Source: Victivallales bacterium (GTDB taxonomy: Bacteria > Verrucomicrobiota > Lentisphaeria > Victivallales > UBA1829). Taken from it: 62,469 nt of DNA. Where the stretch lies: positions 1-62,469 of the forward strand of contig JAZUCU010000023.1 in NCBI GenBank assembly GCA_045639325.1. The letters are read 5' to 3'. Of the stretch, positions 39,239 through 62,251 are shown piece after piece. Under the pieces are notes generated by a model. That model saw nothing but the letters and a program-made list of their open reading frames with translations, was not told the DNA's origin and ran no database searches. The translations under genes and the position numbers were made by a program. The number at the start of each line of letters is the position of its first letter. Within the stretch, counting starts at the first letter, position 1.

Positions 39239-39244
39239 TTTTTA

Positions 39245-41352: not shown

Positions 41353-41377
41353 GACTCCTTGAATAAGACATCAAGCC

Positions 41378-42472
41378 TTACTGATTAGCTGCCGGTGCAA
41401 CTGGTGCCGGTGCAGCAGCAGGAGCTTTTGCCTGCGGAACCTTGCGGAATTTGAGCTTGATAATTGTTTTGGAACGATTGTTACGGACCGTGATATTTTT
41501 GGTGACTGTTTTGTAACCTTCTGCTTCCGCAACAACGGTGTGTTTTCCGGCACAAATTTGATTGCCGTTTTCAAATTCATTGCCATCGACTGTGAAAGTT
41601 ACGGTGTCAGCATCGAATTCTTCATCACCTTTAGGACCATCACATTTGAATTCCAACTTGGTCACATAGTAGCTGGCAACTTTTTCTGCAATCTGCTTGA
41701 GAACATCTTCCATCAAATCAGAAGACGGATTGAAACCTTCGCTCTTGGATGCACTGGTCTGGCGACGGCTTGTTTTTCCGACAACATGGAATGCTTTCAG
41801 AACATTACCATTGAAGTCACGGATGTTACCAACAGCTTTCTGCGTGTAAGTTGTCTTTTTGATCAGAGTGTTTGAAACAGAAACAGTAGTAGATTCTGCC
41901 TTGAGGTCCTGCATGATAACAGTCAGGAAAACGCAAGCAGAAGCAATATCCTGCTGATCGTTGCCACTGATTGCTTTTTCAACTTCAGTAAGATTGGCGT
42001 TGGCGCGGTCAATAACCTTGATATATTCGCTATAGGGGTCGAGGAAGCTCTGGAGATAATTTTTGGCAACAACGATATCGCGTTTGTTTTTGTCACCGAT
42101 GATGGATGTACGCAAATTATCAAGAATATTTGCCATTTTTCTGTTTTGACGGGCAATTTCACGCTGCTCTTCGTTGTACTGTCTGATATTGTTGTTAAAG
42201 TTGAAGTTTGCAGATCTTCTTGCAAGTTCCGGATTGACTGCTCTGTCAGCTTCGCTTACTTTGGGGGTGGATGAAACGTTGAACTGTTTGATCTTTGCCA
42301 GAAATTCTTCTGTCTTTGCAATAGAATCAATGGTCCCTACGTCTGCAACCAACAAACAAACTTTGCCGGGATTTTTGTTGACAGGAATCTGGAATTTCTG
42401 TTCTTCTGCGTGCAAACCGGTAATGCCGACAAGCAACGCAAGAGCCGCTGTTTTGATGATTTGTTTTCTCAT
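41378..42472 (-). CDS. Secreted/lipoprotein with C-terminal PEGA domain (paralog A)
   Basis: ORF 41378-42565. The likely start is MRKQIIKTAALALLVGITGLHA (ATG at 42472, AAAGG RBS). The N-terminal half diverges from paralog B. Confidence 0.55.
   Translation of the reverse strand: MRKQIIKTAALALLVGITGLHAEEQKFQIPVNKNPGKVCLLVADVGTIDSIAKTEEFLAKIKQFNVSSTPKVSEADRAVNPELARRSANFNFNNNIRQYNEEQREIARQNRKMANILDNLRTSIIGDKNKRDIVVAKNYLQSFLDPYSEYIKVIDRANANLTEVEKAISGNDQQDIASACVFLTVIMQDLKAESTTVSVSNTLIKKTTYTQKAVGNIRDFNGNVLKAFHVVGKTSRRQTSASKSEGFNPSSDLMEDVLKQIAEKVASYYVTKLEFKCDGPKGDEEFDADTVTFTVDGNEFENGNQICAGKHTVVAEAEGYKTVTKNITVRNNRSKTIIKLKFRKVPQAKAPAAAPAPVAPAANQ
41452..41910. repeat. Second copy of the ~460-bp duplicated segment
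   Basis: See 40333-40790. Confidence 0.8.
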
Positions 42473-42829
42473 CTTTTTTACCTTTCTATTTGTTTTTTTT
42501 GTTAATGTCAGCTGTAACCTGACGTTGTAATGATTTTTAAACAAAAAAAAGCCGCAATAATCCACCTCTGGACTTCGCAGTTGTAAAATAGAACAGACAA
42601 ATCAGAATAAGAATAGAGTTCGTGGGCTGAATCAATTGTAATTCAGGATAGCTTGCGCTTACAAACTTTTCAGATGTTACATAACCGGAAATATGCAAAC
42701 AATACAACAAGATAAGTAGCTGTAACCGGAATGCTGTCGTTGCAACGGCTCCAAAATCCCTGATTTTTTGGTAAGCTTGATGAATCCCACAACTTTTTCT
42801 GTTGCGAAATCCAGCTTGTTTGGCATCAT

Positions 42830-43307: not shown

Positions 43308-43439
43308 TGCGCCTAGCCCCTTAGGATGGACAACTTTTTCTAAAAGATTGGTGTAAACGTTCTAGTTTTAATATAACCTCTATTTGCAGAATTGCAAGTG
43401 CCGAAATAGACTTCATCCGGAGTTCTGTATCGCAGAGCA
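43308..43439. repeat. ~130-bp repeat 'tgcgcctagcccc..ggacaactttt..tatttgcag..tccggagttctgta'; second copy at 62131-62251
   Basis: About 85% identity between the two copies. It sits directly 3' of the IS3 transposase remnant. Confidence 0.7.
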
Positions 43440-43450
43440 GAGTGAAATCT

Positions 43451-43642
43451 TCAAGTATTGTAGAAATTCACATAGTGCTGCACGCCGAACCGCAGTTGCG
43501 GCAAGCTGACATAATCCTTGATTTTGATATCTTCGTATTTCAAAGCCCACCAGAAACGCTCCATCTTGGCGTTATCCCGGCAACGCCCGCGCCCATCCAT
43601 GCTAATTTGAATGTTGTGCTTTTGTGAAAATCTTCCGTTCAA
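43451..43642 (-). mobile_element. IS3-family transposase (DDE integrase C-terminus) remnant, truncated
   Basis: ISMDGRGRCRDNAKMERFWWALKYEDIKIKDYVSLPQLRFGVQHYVNFYN matches the OrfB C-terminal motif ..SMSRKGNCYDNAxxESFFxxLKxE...YIxxYN. Only ~60 codons remain, with an alternative start codon. Confidence 0.7.
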
Positions 43643-45394: not shown

Positions 45395-45437
45395 GGGAGG
45401 ATTTGTTGCATCATGCATCAAATCCTCCCTTTTTTTT
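45395..45437 (+). terminator. Strong rho-independent terminator after dsbD
   Basis: 'gggaggatttg' / 13-nt loop / 'caaatcctccc', followed by T8. Confidence 0.8.
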
Positions 45438-45489
45438 AGCTATTTTCACATTTTTCTTTATTTTTCTTTATTTTTTATTATTTTTCGAT

Positions 45490-45518
45490 TTGACTTTTAT
45501 TTTTTTATACTGTATATT
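45490..45518 (+). promoter_or_regulatory. Near-consensus sigma70-type promoter TTGACT-N17-TATATT in an AT-rich leader of the 45570 operon
   Basis: -35 at 45490-45495 and -10 at 45513-45518. RBS GGAAAGGAG at 45556-45564. Confidence 0.5.
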
Positions 45519-45569: not shown

Positions 45570-45902
45570 ATGGATATAAAATTCTATTCTCTGGAAGAAG
45601 TGGCAGACCTTTTTGGCGTCAATTATCAATTGGTCTATAAATTGGTAAAATCAGGCGAATTGCCGTCTGTACGAATCGGCAAAGTATACCGAGTATCAGC
45701 GGCACAGCTGAAAGAATATATGGATCGGCAGAGCCAGGGCAGTCCTGCATCCGGCGTAACAGAATACATTTGCAGCAGCTGTGGGAAAAAATATTATAGT
45801 GCCTTATCGATATCCGGACAATGCAAAGATTGCAGTGCACCGCTGTGCAAAGTATGCGTGGAACACAAACACATCCAATATTGCGAAATTCATCAGAAAT
45901 GA
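45570..45902 (+). CDS. Excisionase/MerR-type HTH (HTH_17) DNA-binding protein with C-terminal Cys-rich zinc-binding tail
   Basis: LEEVADLFGVNYQLVYKLVKSGELPSVRIGKVYRV matches the excisionase-family HTH. C-terminal CxxC...CxxC...CxxC...CxxH. Confidence 0.6.
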   Translation: MDIKFYSLEEVADLFGVNYQLVYKLVKSGELPSVRIGKVYRVSAAQLKEYMDRQSQGSPASGVTEYICSSCGKKYYSALSISGQCKDCSAPLCKVCVEHKHIQYCEIHQK

Positions 45903-45924
45903 TATATGACAGGAGGAAATAAAA

Positions 45925-47802
45925 ATGATCGACAACTGGTTTACTAACAAATGTATGACGCTGGTCGGTGCGAATGGCAGAGCCCTTGCAGGAGAAGCAT
46001 TGGAATTGGCGGAACTGGCATTGCAGGAAGTCAAAGCTGCCAATCACAAAGTCTGGACAGACCGGAATGGTAATTTTTACCACAAAGAACGCAGTCTGTT
46101 CGCATCCGCTCACCCTGTCATGGATCAAAATGGGAATCAGGTCCGGATTTGCGGACGGCTTGTAAAATTCAAAGCAAAATTCTGCAGCAAATGCGGCGGC
46201 ACTGCTCCGGGCAGCTGGTGGAGATGCGGCGGATGCGGCAAAATGATCGGCAGCGAATCCCACACATGTCCTCATTGCGGCAGAGCACAAAATCTGATTG
46301 TCCGCCTGGATCTGACAAACGGCTGCTGGAGAAAAGATGAAGAAATATTTGCAGAACGCTTTGAACTGAACGATATTGCCTCTTTGATCCCCATCGGCCT
46401 GGACGTGCAGGAAAGCCAGAAAGCCATTATTCTCGAAGGTGGCGCTGTGGTCGATGTATTGGATGCCGGCCATTACCCGCTTCCGGATCTCACCAACAAG
46501 GAAGGCGGCGAAAAAAGCGTGGTCATGGTCGACAATGCGGAATTCATCATTCCTGTTAAAGTGGAACAGATTCTGACAAAAGACGACATTGAATCCGATC
46601 TCCATACCGTGATCGTTTTGCGTTTCGCCCCCGCAAAAGCAGAACAATTCATGTGCAATCTGATGGGCAGTGCACTGTACCTGAAAGATGATGCGCTGAC
46701 TGCATCTCTGGGATATGATGAAATTGCACACTGCATTCTTGCGGAAGTCGATGGCGCAGCAAGAGAATTTTGTAACAATACAACGGTTGCCGATCTTTTC
46801 CGTGATGCCGCCACCCGGATCAATCTGGAAAATCACATTGCAAACCGCTTGAAACGTAATATGGATGCCATGGGTATGAGCTTCGTACGACTGAAAGAAG
46901 TCGAATTTGAATCAGAAGTCTTCACCCGCCTCCGCAATATGTCCGGACAGATTGAAATCAAACGCAAAGAAATCGAATTCATGCAGCGTGCCGATGAGCT
47001 TGCCAACGATGCAACCCGTCGGGAAGCCATGAGTGAGCACGAAATGGAAGAATTCATGAAGCAGCTTGCTCAGGAAAAGACCATCAAGGATGATTTGCGT
47101 GCGCAGGAACTCGAACGCATGAGAGTACTCTGGCAGAGACAGAAAGATAAAGAAATCATTTCTCATGAACATGATTTGAATGATCTGACACAGGAAAGAC
47201 AGCACGAATATGATCGCACAGAAGCCAAATTCAAGCACGAAATGCTGGATTTGGATCACAGTAAAGCCATCGAACGCCGTATCAATGAACATAAAGGAAA
47301 TCTGGAATACGAACAGATTGAAAGTCAAATCCAGACCATCAGAATTGACGTTCAGAGAAAAAAAGTTGCCGCAGAACACGAAGCGGCTGCCGGTTGGCTG
47401 AAACTCAAACAGGATAAAAAAGCATTCGACCACAAATTGAAGTTGGAAATGCTCAAAGAAGCGGATAACGTCAACATTCAGGCCTTGCTGATGGCAGAAG
47501 AAGATTCCGATAAACGACGCGACCTGCTTGCTCTGTTTGAATTGCAGCAGCAGACCAAGATGACTCCGGAACTTCTCCTCGCGGCCGCCGCTGCACGGGG
47601 TAATGCCGCTGCCGCAGAAGCTCTGACACATATGGATCAATCCAAACTGGATGCTCTGGAACGGTTCAAGAATGAAAATAAAGCCGTTTATGAACAGATG
47701 CTTCAGATGAGCGAACGCATGTTCAATCAGGCTCTTGACAAAATGGCTCAGACCCGCGATAATTCCCAAAACAATAATTTAACTGCACAGATTATTAAGT
47801 GA
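45925..47802 (+). CDS. Double-zinc-ribbon plus SPFH/Band-7 (flotillin-like) domain protein with long EA-rich coiled coil
   Basis: CSKCGG..CGGCGK..CPHCGR ribbons. SPFH-like core (AIILEGGAVVDVLDAGHY ... MGMSFVRLKEVEFESEV). Flotillin-like coiled coil ending LLAAAAARGNAAAAEAL. Confidence 0.55.
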   Translation: MIDNWFTNKCMTLVGANGRALAGEALELAELALQEVKAANHKVWTDRNGNFYHKERSLFASAHPVMDQNGNQVRICGRLVKFKAKFCSKCGGTAPGSWWRCGGCGKMIGSESHTCPHCGRAQNLIVRLDLTNGCWRKDEEIFAERFELNDIASLIPIGLDVQESQKAIILEGGAVVDVLDAGHYPLPDLTNKEGGEKSVVMVDNAEFIIPVKVEQILTKDDIESDLHTVIVLRFAPAKAEQFMCNLMGSALYLKDDALTASLGYDEIAHCILAEVDGAAREFCNNTTVADLFRDAATRINLENHIANRLKRNMDAMGMSFVRLKEVEFESEVFTRLRNMSGQIEIKRKEIEFMQRADELANDATRREAMSEHEMEEFMKQLAQEKTIKDDLRAQELERMRVLWQRQKDKEIISHEHDLNDLTQERQHEYDRTEAKFKHEMLDLDHSKAIERRINEHKGNLEYEQIESQIQTIRIDVQRKKVAAEHEAAAGWLKLKQDKKAFDHKLKLEMLKEADNVNIQALLMAEEDSDKRRDLLALFELQQQTKMTPELLLAAAAARGNAAAAEALTHMDQSKLDALERFKNENKAVYEQMLQMSERMFNQALDKMAQTRDNSQNNNLTAQIIK

Positions 47803-47812
47803 GGCAGCTATA

Positions 47813-49342
47813 ATGATAATAAAATGTCCCAACTGCTCAAACGAAGTTGAATTTATTCCGGGTGAATGTGAATTCTGCCCGGAATGTGGCAGCGATCTGA
47901 CCGTGCAGGAACAACAGCAACAGGCAACCGATGTTCCACAACAGGAAACCGCCTGCGTGCAAAACAAAGAAGCGGAAGAAACATTTTCCGATCAGGATAC
48001 CATTGCAGCACTGATGGCGAAACTTGCCGAACTGAAGGCTGACAAATCCCGGCAGACCTCCCGCCCTGTTGAAAAAGAAGAAAACTGGGATTTATCTGCA
48101 AAATCAAAAATGATTGCGGATGATATTGATTCCTTTGATATTTTCAGCACTTCTTCCAGCACATGCAAGCAGCTGAAAGTGGAATACAACCACAATCTCC
48201 ATTTCTTAACTGGATCTCAGGCCGTTATCCAGCTCAGACTGACTCCCCTTGATGATCAGCTGAAAGATTTGATGATCTTTATGGAGACAGAACGGAATGG
48301 CGACCATACAAGACGTCAGATTCCGATCCGGGAAATATTGAGAAAAAACCGTTCCTTCTCGCTGCAGATCCCCTTCAATCCGGAAAATACATTCGGTAAA
48401 GCATTTTTTATATTTTACATCGGCTGCAAAATTGATAAAACATTCAAGTATTATCAGTTCTCCGTAAATCACACAGTATACGATTCCAAGCAGTCCGGAA
48501 ATGCTATTATCAAGGACATCACGATCAATCAGGAGTTCTCCGCCCAGCATGCCGCAGATATCAATTACCGCGATAACTTCGGCGAGGCAATGAAGAAATT
48601 GGCGGATAAAAACCTGACCGTCAACGAACTGATCGACCGCTTGAATGCCATGCCGCCCAATTTCTGCGAACAGGATCTCATTGAAACAACGTGGAGACCC
48701 GAGGATATACTTGTCAAAGGCAATTTATACCGCGCCGATAAACTCATTCTTGAGTACGAAGGCAAGTCATTAATCCTCATCAATAAACCGAAAGTGGTCT
48801 TCGGCAGAGACCGGAACCAGGCCGACCTGCTTGTCCGATGCGGACAGGGTAAACTCGGGCAGATGGAATACCCCAATTCCACCGTCAGCAGAAAACATGC
48901 AGAAATTCTTTATTGCGATGACACCGTAAAGCTCTTCGATCACAGTTCTTACGGAACCTATATCAACGGGAAAAAACCCGATGGCCCCGGTATTCCGTTA
49001 GCTCTGACTGCAAATGTTGAATTCGGCGACATCTGCTGGGAAATGAATATACAGCAATGTGCAGGCCGGGTGCCGCACAATATCTGCCAGACATGTACGG
49101 CAAATAAAGTCAAATCGGTCACCTTCAAAAGAAAAGATAAGGAACCGGAATATTATCTGCTGATCTGGCAATGCTGTGAGCTCGGCAGATTGATCGAAGA
49201 TTTGACCGACTGGACCATTTTTACCAGAGATGATTCATTCTTTATCCGGACGCCGGACCAGGATTTCCACTATTTGCGCCCCGGTCAACCCATTACTTAC
49301 AACAACAAAACTTTTAACGTAAAATATTTTTATCAAGCTTAA
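47813..49342 (+). CDS. Zinc-ribbon plus FHA domain protein
   Basis: N-terminal CPNCSNEV...CPECGS. C-terminal FHA pattern VVFGRDRNQADLLV...VSRKHAEILYCDDTVKLFDHSSYGTYINGKK. Confidence 0.65.
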   Translation: MIIKCPNCSNEVEFIPGECEFCPECGSDLTVQEQQQQATDVPQQETACVQNKEAEETFSDQDTIAALMAKLAELKADKSRQTSRPVEKEENWDLSAKSKMIADDIDSFDIFSTSSSTCKQLKVEYNHNLHFLTGSQAVIQLRLTPLDDQLKDLMIFMETERNGDHTRRQIPIREILRKNRSFSLQIPFNPENTFGKAFFIFYIGCKIDKTFKYYQFSVNHTVYDSKQSGNAIIKDITINQEFSAQHAADINYRDNFGEAMKKLADKNLTVNELIDRLNAMPPNFCEQDLIETTWRPEDILVKGNLYRADKLILEYEGKSLILINKPKVVFGRDRNQADLLVRCGQGKLGQMEYPNSTVSRKHAEILYCDDTVKLFDHSSYGTYINGKKPDGPGIPLALTANVEFGDICWEMNIQQCAGRVPHNICQTCTANKVKSVTFKRKDKEPEYYLLIWQCCELGRLIEDLTDWTIFTRDDSFFIRTPDQDFHYLRPGQPITYNNKTFNVKYFYQA

Positions 49343-49357
49343 GAAAGGAAGACAACA

Positions 49358-50095
49358 ATGAAAAAAAATCTGTTTCTCAGCACCATCTGCATGGCCGTTT
49401 TTATGCTCCTGCAGGGCTGCACTCTGGTAACACCTCAACCTCTTTCCAATGACAATGCCCGGGGAGTTCCGGTTCCCATGCATACGTATGGAAATATTAC
49501 TCTGTTCGAAGAATTGCGCGCACCTCTGCAAGTCTCCGTAACAACCGAAGATCCCGCCTTAATCAATACCATGCGGAAATATCTGCAACAGTCTGATATC
49601 AATTGCGCAGCACCCGGTGCTCCCTTTGACATCCGGGTCAATATCAATTCCATGTATCACGAATTGACTCCGGCTCCGAAATGCCGTCTTTCCAACACCA
49701 CAATCATTTCTGTGTCTGCCCCCGACGGCACAAAGATTTCAAAAGACTGGAAACAGAAAACGGTAAATCAGCAGGGATTCGCAACGGCTGAAATTGCAAA
49801 AGCAAAACTCAAACCCATGATTGCAAAAAATATCAAACTGTGGGAACAGAATTATTTCCGCAAAGAAGCCGGTGGCCGTTTGAATGTCGCAGTCCTGCGT
49901 TTCAAAATGTCAAAAGCCTGGATCGAACTCAACCCGATCCAGTTTGAAAAAGATATTATGAAAGTCAATAAACATCTGCGCAAAATCAAGAATGTCGCCG
50001 ATGTACGTATGATCGAAGTCGATAAAAAATCCAGAATTGTCTCATTCCGCATTCTCTGCATCGATCACGTCAATTTCAAAAACGCTCTCAAATAA
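49358..50095 (+). CDS. Lipoprotein of unknown function
   Basis: Lipobox LLQGC. No recognisable domain. Confidence 0.5.
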   Translation: MKKNLFLSTICMAVFMLLQGCTLVTPQPLSNDNARGVPVPMHTYGNITLFEELRAPLQVSVTTEDPALINTMRKYLQQSDINCAAPGAPFDIRVNINSMYHELTPAPKCRLSNTTIISVSAPDGTKISKDWKQKTVNQQGFATAEIAKAKLKPMIAKNIKLWEQNYFRKEAGGRLNVAVLRFKMSKAWIELNPIQFEKDIMKVNKHLRKIKNVADVRMIEVDKKSRIVSFRILCIDHVNFKNALK

Positions 50096-50125
50096 AATTA
50101 AGATAACAAAGAAGGAAACACGAAT

Positions 50126-50917
50126 ATGAAGAAAATCAATTTACTTTTTGCCGCTGCAGCTCTCACATTCTGCTTCGGATGTGGCGGAGATATCACCGTC
50201 GAGCCCCAGCCCACACTCCCACCGCTGCCGCCCGCTCCTGCACCCGTCACCATAACAACGCAGGCAGATGCTAATTTCACGGTTGCAAGTGAAACCAATA
50301 CAAAACTGCGTGCAGATTTCAAATGGAACAACTCCGAAGCGAATTTCAGCTGTAAACTGGCTGAACGTCTTGCGGATCAAATTGTGATTCAGAATGCAGA
50401 TCTCACCATGAATGGTAAATGCGATGTAACAATTATCATCATGCCCGAATTCGAATTGAAAGATAAAACCGGCAATTATTACCGCATTAACTGCAATCAG
50501 ATCAAGGTCTCTCTGGTCATGGCGCAGAAAACCGGTGCTATAAAAGTTATCGAACTCAAACCGATGCCCCGTAAACTGGGAATCGAACAGGCGAAAAATC
50601 AGTACCTCACCCCGGCTGTTAAAAAACTCGTCCCGTTCCTGCGCAAGGAATTGACAAGACTCAGCAATGAAGAGGTCGCCGTCGGCATCGTAAATTTTGC
50701 TCTGGCTAACATTCAGGAACAGCCCTCCTCTGAAAAAGTTGCCAAAGAAGTTGAAAGAATTGCCGATATTATGAAAAATATGAACGGAATCATCAACTAC
50801 ACTGTGATCCGGCAGGATGTGAACAAAGCACAATGCACATACCGGGTGGTTTACCTGAGAGAAAAATTCCCCCAGGGACTCAGAAACGCTCTCAACTTGA
50901 AACTTGCCAACAAATAA
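50126..50917 (+). CDS. Lipoprotein of unknown function
   Basis: Lipobox CFGCGG, followed by a Pro-rich linker. Confidence 0.5.
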   Translation: MKKINLLFAAAALTFCFGCGGDITVEPQPTLPPLPPAPAPVTITTQADANFTVASETNTKLRADFKWNNSEANFSCKLAERLADQIVIQNADLTMNGKCDVTIIIMPEFELKDKTGNYYRINCNQIKVSLVMAQKTGAIKVIELKPMPRKLGIEQAKNQYLTPAVKKLVPFLRKELTRLSNEEVAVGIVNFALANIQEQPSSEKVAKEVERIADIMKNMNGIINYTVIRQDVNKAQCTYRVVYLREKFPQGLRNALNLKLANK

Positions 50918-50932
50918 CATAAAACGGAGATT

Positions 50933-52093
50933 TTGAAAATGAAAAAGTTTTTTATTACTCTTGCAGCATTCATCTTGACGGCTGCCGCCGCATTCGCCAA
51001 TGATGAAAAGATTATTACGGATGAAGATATCAGACAGGCCATTTACGGTGCTTTGGATAAAGCCGCCGCTGAACTGAAAAACGCAAACCTGGGCAAAGCT
51101 CCCATTGCTGTTTACGCATCAAAACAATATCAGATGATCCTTTCCGGTCGTCTCAAAACCATGCTGAACAATGCCGGTTATACCTGCATCGAAGAAAAAG
51201 ATGATCCTTTCTGGAATGAATTGATCAACCGGATCGAATGGAATGAACGCAAAGAAGATATCCTTGATCCGACAACCATTATGAAATTCGGTAAATTGAA
51301 AGCCGCAAAAGTCCTCTTCCAGTGCTATATCCGCCACATCGATAAAAACTCCGATCGCGTATATGTGGAACTCGATTTGCGTGCAACTGAAATCAATACT
51401 GCTAAAAACCTCTGGAGCACAACAGTCTCTCACCGCCACTATATCGGCGAAAAAGTCCAGGGTATCGTTGCCATTGATAATAATCTGGCTGAACTCCTTA
51501 AAAAGAATTTCCAATTCGCTCATCAGTCTCTGATTTCCCAGTTCTACACCGAAAAACTCAAAAATGTCAGAAATATTGCCGTGATTCCTCTCAGCGGCGA
51601 TGTCGCTTCCTACCTCACGCAGTTGACGATCGAAATGATCTCACGCACAAAATATCTCCCGAAACATTCCCCCATCCCCTCTCTGGCAGAAGCACGTATT
51701 GCCGTACGTGACAAACAGCTGGGCAGCGATGCCATCTGCTTCGGTTCTGTCCGTTCCCTCCATACAACAAGACCCGTTGAAACAATCCAGTATGAGAAAA
51801 AAACAATGGTCTACTCATGGAATGTTGTTGCTGATATCCAGATTTTTATCGAAGACACCAAAGGAAACATTCTCTGGAGTGCTGCAATCCGCCTGAATGA
51901 ACCTGTTGTATCAGAAAGAGCAATGACCCCAGATGAAATTAAAAAATATGCTCCTTCCAGTATCATGGTATGGTTTTACAATAACTGGGGACTCTGTTTG
52001 CTGATCGCAGGCGGCTTTGTTGGCGCAATTGTCCTTATCATCTGCCTCACCATTGCATTCAAAGCGATTATCCTTTACAATCACGTAAGATAA
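50933..52093 (+). CDS. Secreted protein with two CsgG/LpoB-like repeats and a C-terminal TM anchor
   Basis: Signal peptide, then IAVYASKQYQ... and IAVIPLSGDVASYLTQL... repeats. C-terminal WGLCLLIAGGFVGAIVLIICLTIAF. Confidence 0.4.
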   Translation: MKMKKFFITLAAFILTAAAAFANDEKIITDEDIRQAIYGALDKAAAELKNANLGKAPIAVYASKQYQMILSGRLKTMLNNAGYTCIEEKDDPFWNELINRIEWNERKEDILDPTTIMKFGKLKAAKVLFQCYIRHIDKNSDRVYVELDLRATEINTAKNLWSTTVSHRHYIGEKVQGIVAIDNNLAELLKKNFQFAHQSLISQFYTEKLKNVRNIAVIPLSGDVASYLTQLTIEMISRTKYLPKHSPIPSLAEARIAVRDKQLGSDAICFGSVRSLHTTRPVETIQYEKKTMVYSWNVVADIQIFIEDTKGNILWSAAIRLNEPVVSERAMTPDEIKKYAPSSIMVWFYNNWGLCLLIAGGFVGAIVLIICLTIAFKAIILYNHVR

Positions 52094-52116
52094 CAACAAC
52101 TCCGGGGGCCCTGATA

Positions 52117-53244
52117 ATGAGTGATTATGATTGGAAGAAGGAACGGGAAAAATTCCGTACAAACTTGACATCTGCCGCTTCACAGAAAACAGAAAACGCC
52201 AATGGCAATTTTTCCACTGCAGATACCGCAGGTAAAAAGATTGCCGGAAAAGGTGGACTGCGGCTTGTCATAGCGGGTTTTCTTGTTCTTCTTGCCGTTG
52301 GAATCTGGATGTTTGTCTCGCACAATTCCAATAACAGCACTGCCGCATTTGTCAAGGTTGCGGAACAGAAAAAAAAGGCTCTCGGACTTGTTGTACTGGT
52401 TATCGAAACAAAGGATCATCAAAAAGTTTCTTTGCCTTGCGGTACGGCCTGGGCTTTTTCTGACAAGCAGTTCGCGACCAATGGACATGTTGCCGCAGGT
52501 ATACAAGAAACATTGGCTGATTTTATCGCAAACAATGCCAACGAACTGCTGGCACAGGAGGCAAAAAAAAACAACTGCCAATCCGTTGATGATTACCTGA
52601 AGAAACTCGGCGAACAGAAAGCCGGAGAAACGGTAAAAAGCGCAACGCAATTCGTTATCAGCAAAATCAGCAGCGTCCAGGCAGAAATCATCATTAACGG
52701 CACAAAAAAACAGAGCTATACCGTGACCCATGTCCAAATACACAAAGGATATGGCGCTGTCGATACAAAATTCGATCCCGATGTGGCTGTCCTGACAATC
52801 AAAGAAAAGCATGACTGTTATTTCTCTATCGCAGATCAGAAAACTTTGGGAAATCTCAAATCCGGTATCCCCGTTGCATTCCTCGGTTTCCCGACAGAAG
52901 GTTTGCGGCAGGATAATGTGAACATTGATAACCCCATCGCATCCATGCAAACCGGGATCATTGTCGCCGTCAGCGACTTTGAAATGAAAGACGCGGGGCA
53001 ATCCGGCAATTTCCTCATCCGTCACAGCCTGCCTGCAACCGGTGGCGCAAGCGGATCTCCCATTTTCAACCAGAAAGGGGAAGTCCTTGCCTTGCTTTAT
53101 GCGGGGAATGTAATCGGACAAATCAACGCTGACGGCAAAGTACAGCGTGCTCCCTCCGCCGCCATGATCAATTTCGGCGTCCGCGTGGATTTGATTTCAG
53201 GCATGGCAGCTCCCGTTGCCATAGAAAAATTCTTAAGTCTTTAA
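52117..53244 (+). CDS. Membrane-anchored (N-in) trypsin-like serine protease (S1/trypsin_2-like)
   Basis: Catalytic triad context TNGHVAAG (His), DVAVLTI (Asp), GASGSPIF (Ser). N-terminal cytoplasmic motif MSDYDWKKEREK, then a TM helix. Confidence 0.7.
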   Translation: MSDYDWKKEREKFRTNLTSAASQKTENANGNFSTADTAGKKIAGKGGLRLVIAGFLVLLAVGIWMFVSHNSNNSTAAFVKVAEQKKKALGLVVLVIETKDHQKVSLPCGTAWAFSDKQFATNGHVAAGIQETLADFIANNANELLAQEAKKNNCQSVDDYLKKLGEQKAGETVKSATQFVISKISSVQAEIIINGTKKQSYTVTHVQIHKGYGAVDTKFDPDVAVLTIKEKHDCYFSIADQKTLGNLKSGIPVAFLGFPTEGLRQDNVNIDNPIASMQTGIIVAVSDFEMKDAGQSGNFLIRHSLPATGGASGSPIFNQKGEVLALLYAGNVIGQINADGKVQRAPSAAMINFGVRVDLISGMAAPVAIEKFLSL

Positions 53245-53265
53245 CATTCTTTTAACGAGGCAAAA

Positions 53266-55170
53266 ATGAAAGAATATAACTGGCGTGAAGAACGCAAAAA
53301 CAGATACTCCAACACCCCACACGCAAATGGAAATAATGCAGGAGGATACTCCACTCCCCCCGCCTCAAGCGGCGGCGGCAATGCATTAAAAATCATTCTC
53401 TTCCTCATCATCCTTGCAGGTATTGGCGGCGCAGGATTTTATTATTTCAACAAAAAATCAACCGTTCTCCCGCTTGCTCCCGCACCCGCTGCATATTCTG
53501 TAAACACTCCTGTTGCATCGCAATCGCTTCCGACTCCCGTTGCAAGTGATTCTCCGGCAAAGGAATATGTTCTGCCGGAAATCACAGTACATTACCAGAG
53601 CGGCCCCACTGAAAATGATGAGTACGGTATTATGAATGTGTACGAATCCGGAAAAAGAAAGCAGCTCAAAGCTCCGGCTGTCACGGATGAAGAATTGAGC
53701 AATCATAAGCATAAAAATGCTCTTCTCCAACTGAAGAATAATGCCGTTAACACGCTCAAATTCTTCGCCGGCACATTCGATTATCGTTCTTATGATAACA
53801 AGAACGGTTCTTACAAAATGCATTACACCATTAAAGAATGCACCATTGATCAGAACGGGAAAAAAACTGTTGAAAGCGTAAATAACGCTTATGAACATGC
53901 TGACCCGCTTGGTAATGGCATATTTGATATACACTTTGCTTTTTCTCCCGAAAATATTCATCAGGATACTGTCACTCACGAATTTACCCATGCCGTCACA
54001 GATTACAGAATTAACGATGGCGATAGGAGCACTTTGATTTACGCAGGTCATTCCGGTGCACTCCATGAATCGTTTTCTGATATTTTTGCCTGTCTCCATC
54101 ATATCGAAACAAATCCGGGTTTAACCAGAGAACAGCGTTGGAGTTTTGCAAATGGATCCCGGGATCTTGCAAATCCGGGATCAAAAGTCTCATACGCCGG
54201 CGCCAGATATCCATCTTACTACAAGCAGAATGATGAAAACGGAAAATGGCTTGATCCTTCATCAAATCGTGACGGGGGATATGTACACCATAATATGTCC
54301 GTCCTCTGTAAATTTGCATATCTGATTTGCGAAGGTGATACATTCCGCGGTCAGACGATCAAACCTATGGGGCATATCAAAACCAGAAAACTCTTCTGGC
54401 AGCTTCAGGACAGCAATTATATTGACGTTGCACAGCATTTTGATAATCTCGCAGACAAGATCATTTTTGCCGCAAATGATGCAAAGTTCAGTGAAGATGA
54501 TCTGGTTAATATCAAAAATGCATGTCTGGCTGTCAATCTGCCGATCGATGACAAAATTCTGCAGCTTTTTGATTCCTATGAGAAACAGAATAATACAGGA
54601 AAATTCTCTGCTTCTCTTAAATATGCCTTTACGCCAAAAGCAGTAACAGAAAATGTCCGGATCAATTCAGAAGAGACATTCCGGAACCTGTTCAAAGGCG
54701 AAGAAATCGGAAAAATCTTTGTGAAGCAGAGCGGCGTAAGTGCAAATCCCGGTAGCGATGCCTATAAATATACTGCCCGGAATGTTTCATCCCTGCCGAA
54801 TGCGTTTGGCAGTGGCAGCAGCAAATATTATCAGACAACGCAATGTGTTTCCAATATCCCCGTCTTTGCATCTTCCGCAGTCGTCAGAGTCGATCAGAAA
54901 GGCGAAGTTACACGCTTCAGCAAAAACTTCTCCAGCCGCGCAAAAAACACAAGCATCACACTCAAGTCGTTCCCCGATTCTCTCAAAAAAGAGGTGTTGA
55001 AAAATCAGGAAGTCCGGAATGTCAGCAACTATATCTTTGACCCGGCTCTGCTCCGTATGAAAGGTGCTCCCACCGTCGTCTGGATGGTGGATACACCCGC
55101 CCATCGCTACCTGATCGATCAGAAAAGCGGTAAGGTCGTTTATGACTACCCGCTGATTATTAAAGACTAA
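53266..55170 (+). CDS. Membrane-anchored (N-in) thermolysin-like M4 zinc metalloprotease with an extra C-terminal domain
   Basis: VTHEFTHAVTDY...GALHESFSDIF matches thermolysin (HELTHAVTDY...GAINEAISDIF). N-terminal motif MKEYNWREERKN plus a TM helix. The last ~110 aa are paralogous to the 55180 lipoprotein. Confidence 0.75.
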   Translation: MKEYNWREERKNRYSNTPHANGNNAGGYSTPPASSGGGNALKIILFLIILAGIGGAGFYYFNKKSTVLPLAPAPAAYSVNTPVASQSLPTPVASDSPAKEYVLPEITVHYQSGPTENDEYGIMNVYESGKRKQLKAPAVTDEELSNHKHKNALLQLKNNAVNTLKFFAGTFDYRSYDNKNGSYKMHYTIKECTIDQNGKKTVESVNNAYEHADPLGNGIFDIHFAFSPENIHQDTVTHEFTHAVTDYRINDGDRSTLIYAGHSGALHESFSDIFACLHHIETNPGLTREQRWSFANGSRDLANPGSKVSYAGARYPSYYKQNDENGKWLDPSSNRDGGYVHHNMSVLCKFAYLICEGDTFRGQTIKPMGHIKTRKLFWQLQDSNYIDVAQHFDNLADKIIFAANDAKFSEDDLVNIKNACLAVNLPIDDKILQLFDSYEKQNNTGKFSASLKYAFTPKAVTENVRINSEETFRNLFKGEEIGKIFVKQSGVSANPGSDAYKYTARNVSSLPNAFGSGSSKYYQTTQCVSNIPVFASSAVVRVDQKGEVTRFSKNFSSRAKNTSITLKSFPDSLKKEVLKNQEVRNVSNYIFDPALLRMKGAPTVVWMVDTPAHRYLIDQKSGKVVYDYPLIIKD

Positions 55171-55179
55171 GGAGTTTTT

Positions 55180-55830
55180 ATGATACAATCAATTTTTTCA
55201 ATTGCCGCACTCGCCGTTATGATGCTGTTCATCGGTTGTGATAAGAAAACACCGATTGCTCCGGCAGAACCGGAAAAGAAAGCACCTGCAAAACAAATAC
55301 AGTTGAACGCACTGCTTCAATTCAAAGATCCGGAAATGAAAAAGCTGTTTGCAGAAAAGAAAATCGATCTGCAGAATCTCTCCGTTTCCGGCAAAAAAGA
55401 TTTGGAAAAACTCTTTGGAAATATCATAGAATGTAACGTCAGAGAAAAACCGGCAAGTATCGGTGCCAAAGATAAAACTTTCTTTATCGATCAGAATGTG
55501 AAAGGAATCCCCGTGTACGCTGCAACCGCTGTCCTGCGTTGCAGTGCGGATGGTAAAGTGAAATATTTCAGCTGTAATTTCTCTTCTGCTGCATTGAAAC
55601 TGCAGGCAAAGCCCCGCAAGCTCACGCCGGAACTTCAAACCAAACTTTTCGGAAAAACAAAAACAACCTGTAATGGTGATATGATTTTCGATCCCGTACT
55701 GGTCAATCTGAAAGGCAACACCGCTCTGACGTGGAAATTTACAAACGATATGGAAGTCGTACTGATTGATCAAACAACGGAAAAGAAAGTCTTTGTTCTG
55801 CCCCTTTCCACTTCCATGAAAGCGTTGTAA
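55180..55830 (+). CDS. Lipoprotein paralogous to the C-terminal domain of the M4 protease
   Basis: Lipobox FIGC. IPVYAATAVLRCSADGKVKYFSCNFSS / IFDPVLVNLKGNTALTWKF / VLIDQTTEKKVF align to VFASSAVVRVDQKGEVTRFSKNFSS / IFDPALLRMKGAPTVVWMV / YLIDQKSGKVVY of the protease. Confidence 0.55.
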   Translation: MIQSIFSIAALAVMMLFIGCDKKTPIAPAEPEKKAPAKQIQLNALLQFKDPEMKKLFAEKKIDLQNLSVSGKKDLEKLFGNIIECNVREKPASIGAKDKTFFIDQNVKGIPVYAATAVLRCSADGKVKYFSCNFSSAALKLQAKPRKLTPELQTKLFGKTKTTCNGDMIFDPVLVNLKGNTALTWKFTNDMEVVLIDQTTEKKVFVLPLSTSMKAL

Positions 55831-55923
55831 TACCGGACACAGCATTTTTTTTCTTGCAGAAATTTGAAATATATCACTTCAGGGAGTATATTACTGTATA
55901 TTGATAAACTCTTTTGAGGAGGT

Positions 55924-56469
55924 TTGATGATGGTGAAAAAATTCTTTTTATATGGTTCTCTCATGCTCTTGACTTTCCCCGCTCTGCAGGCGCAGTCCGG
56001 TAATAACCGCAATGTCCGTTATATCGAAAATCTGACCGCTCAGCTGACACAGGTCGTCCGCTCCGTTCAGGATGAAAATGCGCATTTGGAAATGAAAGTA
56101 TCGGAACTGCAGCGTCAAGTGAAGGAACTTGCCGCCAAGAATAAAGAAATGGAACAGGAAATGCAGCGTTTGAAACGTCAGAATGCTGCCGAAGCGGAAG
56201 CACGGGAAGCCCAATTGCGCGAAATCTCCAAGCAGATCAAGCGTCTGGCTTCTCTCCCGCCGCCTGCCGCTCCTGCCGCCACCACACCGGGGAAAAAATC
56301 CGATGCCGGATCCAATCAGAACTATGAGATTTTTGAAGTTCCCAAAGGCGCAACACTCAGTGCCATTGCAAAAGCGTATAACGTTTCCGTGCAATCCATC
56401 AAACGCGCCAATAATATGAAAGATAATAACTTACGGGTCGGTCAGAAACTTAAAATCCCCGTAAAATAA
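55924..56469 (+). CDS. Secreted coiled-coil protein with C-terminal LysM peptidoglycan-binding domain
   Basis: Signal peptide, heptad-rich segment, and LysM (YEIFEVPKGATLSAIAKAYNVSVQSIKRANNM...GQKLKIP). Confidence 0.7.
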   Translation: MMMVKKFFLYGSLMLLTFPALQAQSGNNRNVRYIENLTAQLTQVVRSVQDENAHLEMKVSELQRQVKELAAKNKEMEQEMQRLKRQNAAEAEAREAQLREISKQIKRLASLPPPAAPAATTPGKKSDAGSNQNYEIFEVPKGATLSAIAKAYNVSVQSIKRANNMKDNNLRVGQKLKIPVK

Positions 56470-60082: not shown

Positions 60083-60437
60083 CGTCCGAATAAGCTGAGA
60101 TGAATCTAGAACCAGTGCCAACGGCACGGCACAGTACAGCCCAGGGTGAAGCGTCAGCGAGAACCCTGGGTATAAGACATCGAACTACATTGATTAAGAC
60201 CGGCATTGACGGATATGGCGTTCCGGTACGGAATGGCATATTCGTCAATGCAATGAGTTTCGGGGTCCATCATTGCCACCACGATGCCGCCTGTTTCTTA
60301 CGAAACGCCGTCAACGCGGTGGCTGTCATTATGCAAATTCAAAGGACTTATACCCAGGGTTACGCTTCGCTCACCCTGGGCTTTACTGTGCCGTGCCGTT
60401 GGCACTGGTTTTAGATTTATCTCTGCATTTACGGACA
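60083..60437. repeat. ~350-bp imperfect palindromic element: ~100-bp inverted arms (including a perfect 26-bp core) around a ~165-bp centre; MITE-like or structured-RNA candidate
   Basis: 'aaccagtgccaacggcacggcacagt' (60109-60134) is the exact reverse complement of 60385-60410. Arm similarity extends out to ~60083 and ~60437. Internal hairpins 'cccagggt..accctggg'. A partial copy lies at 1-290. Confidence 0.65.
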
Positions 60438-62130: not shown

Positions 62131-62251
62131 TGCGCCTGCCCCCATGGGCTGGACAACTTTTATAAAAAATTGGTGTAAATGCTCTTGTTTTAATATAGCA
62201 TCTATTTGCAGGATTGCAAATACCAAAATAAACTTCGTCCGGAGTTTTGTA
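62131..62251. repeat. Second copy of the ~130-bp 'ggacaac' repeat (first copy at 43308-43439)
   Basis: Read directly. Lies in the upstream region of the 60638-62110 gene. Confidence 0.7.

Follow-up and report, generated by a model that had tools for sequence, protein, structure and literature searches.

Rings of SPFH proteins pair with membrane proteases, as in HflK/C-FtsH and stomatin-NfeD. In Bacillus subtilis, ydjFGHI encodes PspA, the double-Zn-ribbon protein YdjG, YdjH and the SPFH protein YdjI (PMC8581546 via PMC10936438; PMC11237479), and according to PMC8581546, as it is cited in PMC10936438, YdjI recruits PspA. In archaea, accessory SPFH, FHA and kinase genes accompany ESCRT variants of the Meth_adaptin and Halo_FHA groups (Makarova et al. 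2024, PMC10936438).

The locus described here (genes g1 to g10, Table 1) lies in a 62,469-nt stretch of DNA from a Victivallales bacterium, the whole of which is called the window. It represents a genuine module of genes, conserved in Lentisphaerae-type (PVC) bacteria and not described before, and is the protease-bearing version of a membrane-spanning, apparently self-regulated module. A sequence-only reading had seen in it an envelope-spanning cluster centred on two Zn-ribbon proteins, one SPFH and one FHA, and accompanied by proteases anchored in the membrane, which is supported here with the ten-gene extent corrected; it had also matched the set to no named system, and indeed no described system equal to the module was found in Pfam, NCBIfam, PADLOC or the literature searched.

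In fact, each of the known systems resembles the module in part. With ydjFGHI, so far as the cited accounts portray it (PMC8581546 via PMC10936438; PMC11237479), it shares a soluble SPFH protein free of TM segments, Zn-ribbon proteins at the inner membrane face and a link to an ESCRT-III-superfamily protein, here in Snf7-bearing sister loci; however, the window has neither PspA nor Snf7 and no YdjH/TPM protein, the SPFH protein carries the Zn ribbons within its own chain, and the module further includes tethered proteases, exported partners (an LpoB-fold protein and lipoproteins), an FHA adaptor and, in relatives, kinases. Like HflK/C-FtsH and stomatin-NfeD (STOPP), it encodes an SPFH scaffold together with membrane-anchored protease(s), and the expected logic would be the corralling of a protease within a membrane domain; yet its proteases are of the S1 and M4 types, not FtsH (M41) or NfeD/ClpP-like, there is no NfeD domain, and the SPFH protein lies in the cytoplasm without any TM, across the membrane from the protease domains in the periplasm, so that contact is possible only via cytoplasmic tails of 40-50 residues. 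The domain repertoire of the archaeal ESCRT variants (PMC10936438) recurs in the Zn-ribbon and coiled-coil SPFH protein, the FHA protein and the Ser/Thr kinases, and in the Snf7 and CdvC/Vps4-like AAA ATPase of the sister loci, but the present loci are bacterial (PVC), are supplemented by a regulator of HTH_17-zinc type and, in the periplasm, by lipoprotein/LpoB-fold partners, and in the branch of the window Snf7/AAA was lost or never present, with proteases instead. In the T6SS threonine-phosphorylation pathway (TagQRST-PpkA-Fha1-PppA), likewise, the assembly of a membrane machine is controlled by an FHA scaffold protein, a Ser/Thr kinase in the membrane, and sensors that are periplasmic and lipoproteins, and g3 has a weak TagH match (0.0088); the module, however, has neither T6SS genes nor a phosphatase, and its FHA protein differs in architecture. 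Finally, the N-terminal membrane anchor and periplasmic chymotrypsin-fold domain of g7 recall DegS and MarP, which have envelope-stress roles, whereas g7 lacks the PDZ domain of DegS, has a single TM against four in MarP, and bears a conserved cytoplasmic N-terminal motif unique to the module.

Gene order and control signals

The ten co-directional genes reported earlier between 45570 and 56469 are all present as ORFs, separated by 22, 10, 15, 30, 15, 23, 21, 9 and 93 bp, and a Shine-Dalgarno-like motif lies 5' of each. The gene following g10 after 17 bp was read as an LplT-acyltransferase-Aas fusion, and its MFS, Acyltransferase and AMP-binding domains agree with this. The upstream neighbour, dsbD, is not conserved across related loci; both the terminator and the near-consensus promoter predicted after it were located, and the terminator sets the module apart from upstream transcription.

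Table 1. Features of the locus and its surroundings in the window
Feature	Position	Strand	Details
IS3-type transposase fragment	43451-43642		identified by eye
38-nt direct repeat	43308 / 62131		79% identity
66-nt inverted repeat	60084 / 60371
Intrinsic terminator closing dsbD	45395..45437	+	GGGAGGATTTG...CAAATCCTCCC, 11-bp perfect stem 45395-45429, then T8
Tandem conserved cis-element	45450..45470	+	ATTTTTCTTT x2, holding TTTCTTTA twice 10 bp apart
Sigma-70-like promoter	45490..45518	+	TTGACT-17-TATATT
g1, 110-aa HTH_17 (excisionase/MerR-type) DNA-binding protein	45570..45902	+	HTH_17 2.8e-13; TIGR01764 (excisionase) 1.4e-12
g2, 625-aa cytoplasmic double-Zn-ribbon SPFH (Band_7) protein	45925..47802	+	DZR matches; Band_7 at family level
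g3, 509-aa cytoplasmic Zn-ribbon FHA protein	47813..49342	+
g4, 245-aa lipoprotein	49358..50095	+	signal peptide and Cys lipobox
g5, 263-aa lipoprotein, new family	50126..50917	+	signal peptide and Cys lipobox
g6, 386-aa exported protein, two tandem LpoB/CsgG/PelC-fold domains	50933..52093	+
g7, 375-aa S1 (trypsin-like) serine protease	52117..53244	+	Trypsin_2 5.5e-12
g8, 634-aa thermolysin-like M4 metalloprotease	53266..55170	+	Peptidase_M4_C 6.9e-16
g9, 216-aa lipoprotein, paralog of g8 C-terminal domain	55180..55830	+	signal peptide, lipobox FIGC
Promoter-like sequence in the gap 5' of g10	55864-55892		TTGAAA-17-TATATT
g10, exported coiled-coil LysM protein	55924..56469	+	LysM 3.5e-14

The tandem cis-element is placed immediately 5' of the -35 box. 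Of 29 non-identical loci, 24 carry TAAA[CG]AAA on either strand ahead of g1; the 33 copies, often paired at a spacing of 10 bp, compare with a background frequency of 0.027 per 160 nt. Moreover, most related loci have a TTGAC(A)-type -35 box at the equivalent position. The element is a candidate operator, putatively bound by g1, or else a candidate UP-like element. The IS and repeat debris said to bracket the locus is partly confirmed by the transposase fragment and the two pairs of repeats.

Conservation and variation among related loci

The loci compared all come from metagenome assemblies, and their hosts belong to the PVC group (Lentisphaeria, Victivallales, Kiritimatiellae). Synteny of g1-g7 extends over about a dozen independent Lentisphaeria loci, where the gene order is kept at 39-91% identity between unrelated flanks, and such synteny means that the arrangement is not fortuitous; the co-occurrence of the Zn-ribbon SPFH and FHA genes with the proteases, suggested earlier as a check, was thus found for the S1 protease g7. 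Judged by synteny, the conserved core is g1-g7 and not all ten genes. The g8/g9 pair, present at the module only in the window and its 91% relative L007, looks like a lineage-specific addition in which g8 acquired the docking tail of the module, and a g8 homolog without tail occurs in L028. The same two loci are the only ones with g10 and the Aas fusion alongside, and we regard g10 as probably just adjacent, its membership finding no support outside this relative. In a close relative (L008/L012), g1-g6 are retained without any protease, thus the protease is not obligatory.

The FHA domain had been thought to have no kinase. This holds for the window, where a kinase HMM run over its whole length found no kinase gene, and where no phosphatase was found either, but Pkinase-FGE-sulfatase Ser/Thr kinases occur in the flanks of 25 of the 42 related loci, often abutting the module; their catalytic domain is PknB-type, and their resemblance to the MADS6/PglW kinases is merely generic. 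The proposed kinship with the Zn-ribbon/SPFH partners of PspA modules likewise has a counterpart in distant relatives, though without PspA itself: the more distant PVC sister loci have g1-g3 and g5/g6-like genes, with Snf7, an ESCRT-III-superfamily protein and not PspA, and a Vps4/CdvC-like AAA ATPase in the place of the protease. Protease-type and Snf7-type loci form separate clades, and therefore the mutual exclusivity of protease and Snf7 represents one evolutionary event, not repeated evidence.

Cytoplasmic, exported and proteolytic components

The earlier domain calls all hold (HTH_17, DZR, FHA, lipoboxes, LpoB fold, Trypsin_2, Peptidase_M4_C and LysM), as does that of SPFH for g2 at the level of the family. 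The presumed regulator, g1, ends in a 7-Cys/1-His zinc module with conserved Cys pattern, opens the module at nearly every locus, and is its best-conserved protein, with 68-72% identity where g2 has 54-69%. The C-terminal part of g2 forms a long coiled coil, and the protein has no hydrophobic or TM segment. Pfam Band_7 is matched by 13 of 19 family members (best 4e-12), while g2 of the window alone falls below threshold; Band_7_1, the profile proposed earlier, is touched weakly by two of the 19, and the family profile has no significant PDB match by sequence, the best being Pyrococcus stomatin at E 0.07. A ~65-aa insertion in the first ribbon is specific to protease-type loci. Homologues of g2 form about 100 clusters at 90% identity in the database, whose named sources are Lentisphaerae/Lentisphaeria, with no isolate among the clusters of identified source. 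In g3, a Zn ribbon, a disordered linker, an Ig-like beta-sandwich, helices, the FHA domain and a Cys-containing C-terminal beta domain follow one another; the FHA fold is confirmed, and its phospho-threonine-binding pocket is intact with conserved residues. In one relative (P0083), g2 and g3 are joined as a single SPFH-FHA protein.

Among the exported partners, g4 is found in only part of the loci, while the families of g5 and g6 are common to protease-type and Snf7-type loci. Neither g4 nor g5 matches Pfam or PDB; their families align with each other (hhalign, 99.4%, E 5e-22, from disjoint alignments), by which they are distant paralogs within one new family. The g6 protein, which likely starts at the ATG at 50939, is not a lipoprotein and has a C-terminal TM anchor followed by a short conserved cytoplasmic tail ending -VR. 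Each of g6, g7 and g8 crosses the membrane once and has a short, conserved end in the cytoplasm.

Both proteases have intact catalytic residues. In g7, an N-terminal cytoplasmic tail (N-in) and one TM (50-68) precede the periplasmic catalytic domain, whose triad H124/D222/S312 is invariant across 12 orthologs; in g8, the tail motif MKEYNWREERK and one TM precede the catalytic domain and an FTP-like C-terminal domain, and alignment to thermolysin reveals HExxH (HEFTH), together with the Glu that serves as third zinc ligand and the catalytic His. As earlier proposed, g9 copies this C-terminal domain (29% identity to g8 residues 476-630, BLASTP E 2e-16; weak FTP match, 0.024), and it is possibly a trans-acting, prodomain-like regulator of g8. 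Moreover, an N-terminal cytoplasmic peptide EYNW-K/R-x-E-R/K, in its fuller form M-x-EYNW(K/R)xE(R/K)xKY, marks every module protease, namely every g7 ortholog, both S1 proteases of the divergent locus L041, and g8; the strict motif (regex) has no other match when the window and 40 loci are translated in all six frames. The motif holds no conserved Thr, hence the FHA domain is probably not its direct binder.

Possible modes of action

The explanation that we favour, at roughly an even chance of being right, is that the envelope is surveyed or remodelled by periplasmic proteases docked on a phospho-regulated scaffold beneath the membrane. As an SPFH protein with a coiled coil, g2 would oligomerise there, as other SPFH rings or cages do, and form a platform with the adaptor g3, whose FHA domain would recognise threonines phosphorylated by the Pkinase-FGE-sulfatase kinases, which in the window genome would be encoded away from the module. 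To this platform g7 and g8 may dock by their N-terminal peptides and g6 by its C-terminal tail, as the conservation and co-occurrence of these ends suggest, and the S1 and M4 proteases would thereby be gathered next to the LpoB-fold/lipoprotein assembly g4-g6. The result would be a proteolysis of envelope proteins that is confined in place and controlled by a signal, and that serves surveillance, quality control or remodelling, with g9 possibly modulating g8 and g1 governing transcription via the conserved tandem element. The sister loci deploy Snf7 and the CdvC-like AAA ATPase from the same platform, which argues that the platform serves more generally to bring an effector to a membrane site. 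We counted for such a scaffold the synteny, the P0083 fusion, the FHA pocket, the flanking kinases, the tail motif, the active sites, the cis-element, the fold and topology of g6, the g5/g6 families shared by both locus types and the precedents of the SPFH-protease pairs and of YdjI with PspA, and against it the protease-less L008/L012, the window without kinase and phosphatase, the sub-threshold Band_7 score of g2 with the non-significant stomatin match of its family, the purely metagenomic origin of the data, the tail motif without conserved Thr and the single event behind protease/Snf7 exclusivity.

It is unlikely, though arguable, that the module works as a DegS/RseA-like cascade, where upon an envelope cue g7 cleaves the periplasmic part of g6 or a lipoprotein, and the altered SPFH/FHA complex releases or activates g1 to reprogram transcription. 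The conservation and first position of g1, the cis-element at its promoter, the single-pass g6 with its conserved tail and the DegS/MarP-like topology of g7 (weak MarP-family match, 5.9e-6) are in line with it; but L008/L012 and all Snf7-type loci hold g1, and often g6, without g7, the module has no site-2 protease or sigma factor, g1 has no membrane-binding or anti-sigma-like feature, and the addition of a second protease bearing the same tail motif is left unexplained.

We also think it rather improbable that the module is an anti-phage or other conflict system at the envelope, in which FGE-sulfatase (C-type-lectin-fold) kinases would sense an invader, the FHA/SPFH proteins would pass the signal on, and the proteases would act as effectors, a part taken by Snf7/AAA in sister loci. 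Such systems do repeatedly contain FGS domains and trypsin effectors (PMC7159879), the effector part differs among loci, the contexts are variable with IS debris beside and, in L009, AAA_15/AAA_21 genes nearby, and PADLOC gives weak matches of g1 to the MADS HTH mad1 (1.8e-8) and of g7 to RT-protease (8e-10). However, the 110-aa HTH and the kinase domain are generic matches, PADLOC finds no complete known defence system, nuclease, NTPase sensor and toxin are all absent, half of the proteins are exported to the envelope, the protease domains are on the periplasmic rather than the cytoplasmic side, and the proteins are moderately conserved, not rapidly diversifying.

A regulator of cell-wall growth or division seems distinctly improbable. 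Here g6 and the lipoproteins would activate or position peptidoglycan synthases, FHA and kinases would act as in the actinobacterial PknB-FhaA-MviN circuit, and the proteases and LysM protein would trim wall-associated proteins; the FHA model indeed resembles FhaA, the kinases are of PknB type, and the LysM gene comes next in the window genome. Yet LysM is not conserved with the module, PBP, SEDS and Mur genes are absent from all loci surveyed, and the LpoB fold is common to CsgG, PelC, GNA1162 and TolB-N with unrelated functions; g6, moreover, is no lipoprotein and reaches 17.6 bits with the LpoB model, under the 22.3 cutoff.

Lastly, it is very improbable that co-directional envelope genes simply stand in a row here by chance. 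The unrelated neighbours dsbD, LysM and Aas and the IS debris in the flanks might speak for this, but it is contradicted by the synteny of g1-g7 over many loci with differing flanks, the g2-g3 fusion, and the common docking motif and promoter element.

Layout of the locus and its conserved core

The ten genes g1-g10 had been taken as one envelope operon, an interpretation that our analysis supports in part: the locus consists of a seven-gene core (g1-g7), a two-gene protease add-on (g8 and g9) and three unrelated neighbours, namely dsbD, the LysM gene g10 and Aas. In fact all ten ORFs lie co-directionally on the plus strand where the sequence-only reading had placed them, each with a Shine-Dalgarno-like motif before it, with gaps from g1 to g10 of 22, 10, 15, 30, 15, 23, 21, 9 and 93 bp and then 17 bp to Aas, the MFS-acyltransferase-AMP-binding gene (LplT/Aas-type) expected downstream. 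The strong terminator and the near-consensus promoter described after dsbD are both present (Table).

A hydrophobicity and lipobox scan of the ten proteins detected neither signal peptide nor transmembrane (TM) segment in g1, g2 and g3; a Cys-terminated signal peptide in g4, g5 and g9, as fits the two lipoproteins read at g4 and g5; a cleavable signal peptide and a C-terminal TM segment (354-372) in g6; and a signal peptide in g10. Both g7 and g8 begin with a basic tail followed by a single TM segment and are thus N-in, as proposed for these proteases, with the catalytic domain outside.

The related loci (L001-L042) come from the contigs of g2-homolog clusters and from 31 loci of species-representative genomes, all metagenome assemblies, of which those with a name are Lentisphaeria, Victivallales, Kiritimatiellae or 'Verrucomicrobia'. 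Homologs of g2 form about 100 clusters at 90% identity; where the source of a cluster is identified it is never an isolate, and the few clusters bearing their source's own name are Lentisphaerae/Lentisphaeria. All ORFs were searched with HMMs of the window proteins and of one distant locus, in place of a crude ORF clustering that spurious antisense ORFs of GC-rich loci and a g2-g3 fusion had skewed. In this HMM survey g1-g2-g3 occur together wherever the contig extends far enough, in three arrangements. The protease-type loci (the window, L001/2, L005/6, L007, L009-11, L013, L014, L041 and L042) have the order g1-g2-g3-(g4)-g5-g6-g7, with flanks that are different in every locus; the Snf7-type loci are treated below; and the intermediate loci have neither protease nor Snf7 within range. 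Grouped with the protease type is also a close relative (L008/L012) that has g1-g6 and lacks the protease. The module is conserved, the neighbourhood proposed for the operon being kept as synteny of g1-g7 in relatives. Apart from the window, L007, the 91% relative, is the one locus that carries g8, g9, g10 and Aas, and even it has not kept dsbD as a neighbour. As they are not conserved with the module, dsbD, LysM and Aas are rejected as members; of the ten genes proposed, g10 thus drops out as an unrelated neighbour, and g8 and g9 stay as a lineage-specific add-on with the putative address peptide.

In one lineage g2 and g3 are encoded as a single 1067-aa protein, which shows that these two cytoplasmic proteins are functionally coupled. 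In the same lineage (L005, also L006) g1 is reduced to a remnant, the start of the N-terminal HTH being joined straight to the last zinc-tail residues. A divergent variant, L041, has a 717-aa SPFH protein, a roughly doubled LpoB-fold protein of 791 aa and two S1 proteases that each bear the tail motif; no FHA match is detectable in its 563-aa g3 homolog. The flanks of 25 of the 42 loci carry kinases that combine a Pkinase with an FGE-sulfatase domain. The earlier remark that the FHA domain has no kinase is therefore right for the window, where no Pkinase-FGE-sulfatase kinase was found, but not for the relatives.

Of 29 non-identical loci, 24 have a TAAA[CG]AAA octamer in the 160 nt before g1. 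The 33 copies compare with a background of 0.027 per 160 nt, which includes coding DNA, so that the fold enrichment is inflated. The copies are often paired, 10 bp apart, directly upstream of a TTGAC-type -35 box. Considering that position and spacing are kept across loci whose proteins are about 29% identical, AT-richness alone would not explain them, and the tandem octamer is probably an operator of g1 or a UP-like element.

Table. Coordinates of features in the window and in related loci
Feature	Location	Remarks
Upstream four-gene cluster	window 38309-42565 (-)	exported proteins and lipoproteins of 309, 332, 370 and 395 aa
Direct repeat, 38 nt	window 43308-43345 / 62131-62168	79% identity
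IS3-like debris	window 43451-43642 (-)	63-aa ORF
dsbD (DsbD_TM 4e-31)	window, 3' end 45378	directly upstream neighbour
Terminator hairpin	window 45395-45429	11-bp perfect stem, then T8 run
Tandem element, TTTCTTTA repeats	window 45453-45460 and 45463-45470	upstream of g1
Promoter TTGACT-17-TATATT	window 45490-45518	upstream of g1
Inverted repeat, 66 nt	window 60084-60149 / 60371-60436	89%, 221-nt spacer
490-aa exported protein	window 60638-62110 (-)	HExxH motif (VIVHEMTHAL)
Distant-relative Snf7-type locus	L003 5750-16936	also L004, L019, L025-L029, L037, L040; Kiritimatiellae, Lentisphaeraceae
g2 ortholog starting MG(I/L)F(S/x)D.C	L003 6112	also L019, L021, L023-L040
Fused SPFH-FHA lineage	L005 9753-13204	also L006
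Homologs of the 309- and 332-aa proteins	L008 14055-16059	also L012
g8 homolog in a Snf7-type locus	L028 10192-12069	625 aa; 28% identity, E 6e-38
Divergent variant	L041 7794-18015	

The proposed SPFH/FHA platform and its proteases

The regulator g1 matches HTH_17 (2.8e-13) and excisionase (1.4e-12) and has a tail of seven Cys and one His, just as the reading of an excisionase-type HTH protein with a Cys tail had it. For g2, read as a double-Zn-ribbon SPFH protein, the double zinc ribbon (DZR) is present, but the window protein alone falls below the threshold of Pfam Band_7, which is matched by 13 of 19 aligned relatives (best 4e-12). As the top match of the g2 profile among PDB sequences, a Pyrococcus stomatin, is only marginal (E 0.07), SPFH membership rests on the Pfam matches of the relatives, and we accept g2 as a predicted SPFH protein at the family level. 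A bacterial flotillin of the FloT/FloA type is ruled out, since g2 has no hydrophobic segment or N-terminal hairpin and no match to the Flot C-terminal domain. As to the near SPFH-protease pairs, HflK/C-FtsH is ruled out by the absence of TM segment and signal peptide from g2, its cytoplasm-type Zn ribbons and a locus without FtsH, and stomatin-NfeD by the lack of an NfeD match in all ten proteins.

The first Zn ribbon of g2 contains an insertion of 2, ~27 or ~65 residues depending on the locus: every protease-type locus has the ~65-residue form, and the other loci have a shorter one. This long insertion is a candidate docking surface, confounded by phylogeny. The extreme N-terminus is also conserved, reading M(I/F)(D/E)xWFTxKC in protease-type loci and taking another form in the Snf7-type and intermediate loci (Table); it may help in contacting the membrane, or may simply be the first zinc knuckle.

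The call of g3 as a Zn-ribbon FHA protein is borne out by an FHA fold with the conserved pThr-binding residues G-R, S-x-x-H and N. The FHA pocket is intact, and conservation extends to the cytoplasmic ends of g6, g7 and g8. While BLASTP finds no similarity between the lipoproteins g4 and g5, a profile-profile comparison of non-overlapping alignments of their families gives 99.4% (E 5e-22), by which they are distant paralogs; the family has no match in Pfam or PDB. The secreted protein g6 has an LpoB fold in a tandem domain, as described for it together with its anchor. In a set of 1.84 billion representative proteins its family makes up only 269 clusters, which indicates that the module is rare and phylogenetically narrow. 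The module thus holds two unannotated protein families, the g4/g5 lipoproteins and the g6 tandem LpoB-fold proteins, in a phylum nearly without functional genetics.

Both protease assignments are sustained. The trypsin-like g7 matches Trypsin_2 (5.5e-12), and its triad H124, D222 and S312 is invariant in 12 orthologs; the thermolysin-like g8 aligns to thermolysin (E 4e-15) with HEFTH, GALHESFSD (the Glu zinc ligand) and GGYVHHN (the equivalent of the catalytic His231). Judged by these residues, g7 and g8 are both competent for catalysis, and their catalytic domains lie outside the membrane. The N-terminal FTP/PepSY propeptide of secreted M4 zymogens is not found in g8, which has a cytoplasmic tail and a TM segment instead; an FTP search gives no match for g8 itself and a weak one for g9 (0.024). 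The lipoprotein g9 is a paralog of g8 residues 476-630 (E 2e-16), as had been noticed, and g10 is a LysM protein (3.5e-14), again as read. A g8 homolog including the C-terminal g9-like domain is also seen in the Snf7-type locus L028; it has a coiled-coil N-terminus, without TM segment or EYNW tail, and is thus apparently cytoplasmic.

A near-identical N-terminal peptide is borne by every g7 ortholog, by both L041 proteases and by g8 of the window and L007. Its consensus is M-x-E-Y-N-W-(K/R)-x-E-(R/K)-x-K-Y (further examples are MSDYDWKKEREKF and MKEYNWREERKN), where M1 and W6 never vary and E9 hardly varies. A strict regex, which misses three orthologs carrying variants, has no other match when the window and 40 loci are translated in all six frames. 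A protease of an unrelated family, M4, has acquired the cytoplasmic peptide of the resident S1 protease, and nothing else points so strongly to the tail as an address for the module and to g8 as a functionally integrated part of it. Lacking a conserved Thr, the motif is probably not an FHA ligand, and binding of the FHA domain to the protease tail is set aside.

Snf7-type sister loci and the ESCRT question

The Snf7-type loci (L003/4, L019, L021, L023, L025-29, L031, L033, L035, L037 and L040) have g1-g2-g3 followed by Snf7, a Pkinase-FGE-sulfatase kinase, an AAA ATPase and a Zn-coiled-coil protein, often with g5- and g6-like genes; L034, with the AAA gene on its contig and Snf7 not within range, is grouped with them. 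Periplasmic LpoB-fold and lipoprotein partners are common to both locus types. The 193-aa Snf7 protein scores 33 bits against a Pfam cutoff of 27.3, and the ATPase of ~370 aa matches the NCBIfam model of archaeal CdvC over its whole length, with 199 bits, far under the cutoff of 650, while CDC48/PAN models cover only its ATPase core. For assigning the subfamily, the CdvC alignment was more useful than the PDB sequence search, which said nothing on this point as its ranking is dominated by double-AAA proteins. The zinc module of the Zn-coiled-coil protein resembles the g1 tail (hhalign 91%). Altogether the sister loci possibly hold a bacterial ESCRT-III/Vps4-like pair. For the window itself an ESCRT-III/Vps4 (Cdv-like) system is rejected, as the HMM search found in it neither a Snf7-family gene nor a Vps4/CdvC AAA. 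Proteases and Snf7/AAA never occur together in the surveyed loci, a mutual exclusion that counts as one event because the two types are separate clades.

A 2025 review states that the Vps4-like ATPase, partner of ESCRT-III, appears absent from bacteria (PMC7619361), and Ravi et al. 2024 describe Vps4-like transfers to bacteria with snf7 displaced. The sister loci of Kiritimatiellae and Lentisphaerae, with Snf7 and a CdvC-like ATPase, bear on this debate from outside the window. Tentatively and with low confidence, the operon could be read as one branch of a PVC-wide platform made up of the HTH-zinc regulator, Zn-ribbon SPFH/FHA proteins, Ser/Thr kinases and exported LpoB-fold/lipoprotein partners, whose other branch deploys Snf7 and the CdvC/Vps4-like AAA; Lentisphaeria would have swapped this remodelling effector for docked periplasmic proteases, with the tail as a portable address tag for single-pass proteins. 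If so, some bacteria would have a phospho-regulated machine that remodels membranes in an ESCRT-like way and shares the accessory repertoire of archaeal ESCRT variants.

Mechanism, rival readings and flanking sequences

SPFH/flotillin proteins are ubiquitous and their mechanism is poorly understood; in the few clear cases the partner is a protease (FtsH, NfeD) or the ESCRT-III-like PspA. The module fails the defining membership tests of each compared system, yet works like several, and it is a variation on protease or membrane-stress modules that are scaffolded by SPFH proteins and under the control of FHA proteins and kinases. No description of it was found in the open-access literature searched. 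Among the closest systems is B. subtilis YdjFGHI, where Zn-ribbon and SPFH proteins recruit PspA (PMC8581546; PMC11237479). The window locus differs in that neither PspA/IM30 nor YdjH (TPM) is found among the ten genes or the scanned neighbours, nor Snf7 in the window; the suggested YdjG/YdjI-type kinship has a counterpart in the ESCRT-III-superfamily Snf7 of the sister loci. Archaeal ESCRT variants, which include Zn-ribbon/coiled-coil SPFH proteins, FHA proteins and kinases (PMC10936438), are also close, but the window lacks Snf7/AAA; the T6SS threonine-phosphorylation pathway is close as well.

For the whole we favour, at about an even balance, a phospho-regulated SPFH/FHA platform that docks periplasmic proteases. 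Here g2 would form an SPFH-type oligomer beneath the membrane with g3 as its adaptor; phospho-marks would be written by the kinases that stand next to the module in relatives and be read by g3; g6, g7 and g8 would be docked to the g2/g3 platform via their tails; and the outcome would be localised, signal-dependent periplasmic proteolysis, with g9 as a prodomain-like modulator of g8 and g1 as an autoregulator. All this evidence is comparative, from metagenome assemblies, and interactions, expression and phosphorylation are predicted. That the sister loci couple the same platform to Snf7 and a CdvC-like ATPase suggests that both locus types share the task of responding to a site on the membrane or of reshaping it. 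Such a docking platform would be a new protease pairing, in which a cytoplasmic SPFH protein is linked to periplasmic S1 and M4 proteases via an apparently short portable address peptide and the assembly is placed under FHA/kinase control, and it offers a testable model of how an SPFH platform picks clients across the membrane.

The tethered S1 proteases DegS and MarP are also among the closest systems, and a DegS/RseA-like signalling cascade ending at g1 is an alternative that we consider unlikely. An envelope-level conflict system, to which FGE-sulfatase kinases and variable effectors would point (PMC7159879), seems quite unlikely; PADLOC finds no full complement of a catalogued anti-phage system, only generic single-domain matches (mad1 HTH, RT-protease/LmuA trypsin domain). 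A regulator of peptidoglycan synthesis, with g6 acting like LpoB, the PBP1b activator, is very unlikely: g6 scores 17.6 bits against Pfam LpoB, under the cutoff of 22.3, has no lipobox, is built as a tandem domain and is anchored by a C-terminal TM segment, by which it is rejected as a member of that family. A chance arrangement of the genes is hardly credible.

Several minor features surround the locus. Between the upstream lipoprotein cluster and dsbD, a short ORF bears, by eye only, the DNAxxERFW...LK.E C-terminal signature of IS3-family transposases. A direct repeat flanks dsbD, the module, Aas and the next gene, and an inverted repeat downstream of Aas is probably a repeated element, as small overlapping ORFs at it encode near-identical peptides. 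The 490-aa exported protein has no Pfam match and may be an unclassified secreted metalloprotease. In the upstream four-gene cluster, the 370- and 395-aa proteins are paralogs, weak PEGA-domain similarity being reported for the 395-aa one only. The 309- and 332-aa proteins of this cluster have homologs directly 3' of g6 in the protease-less L008/L012, which hints at a functional link.
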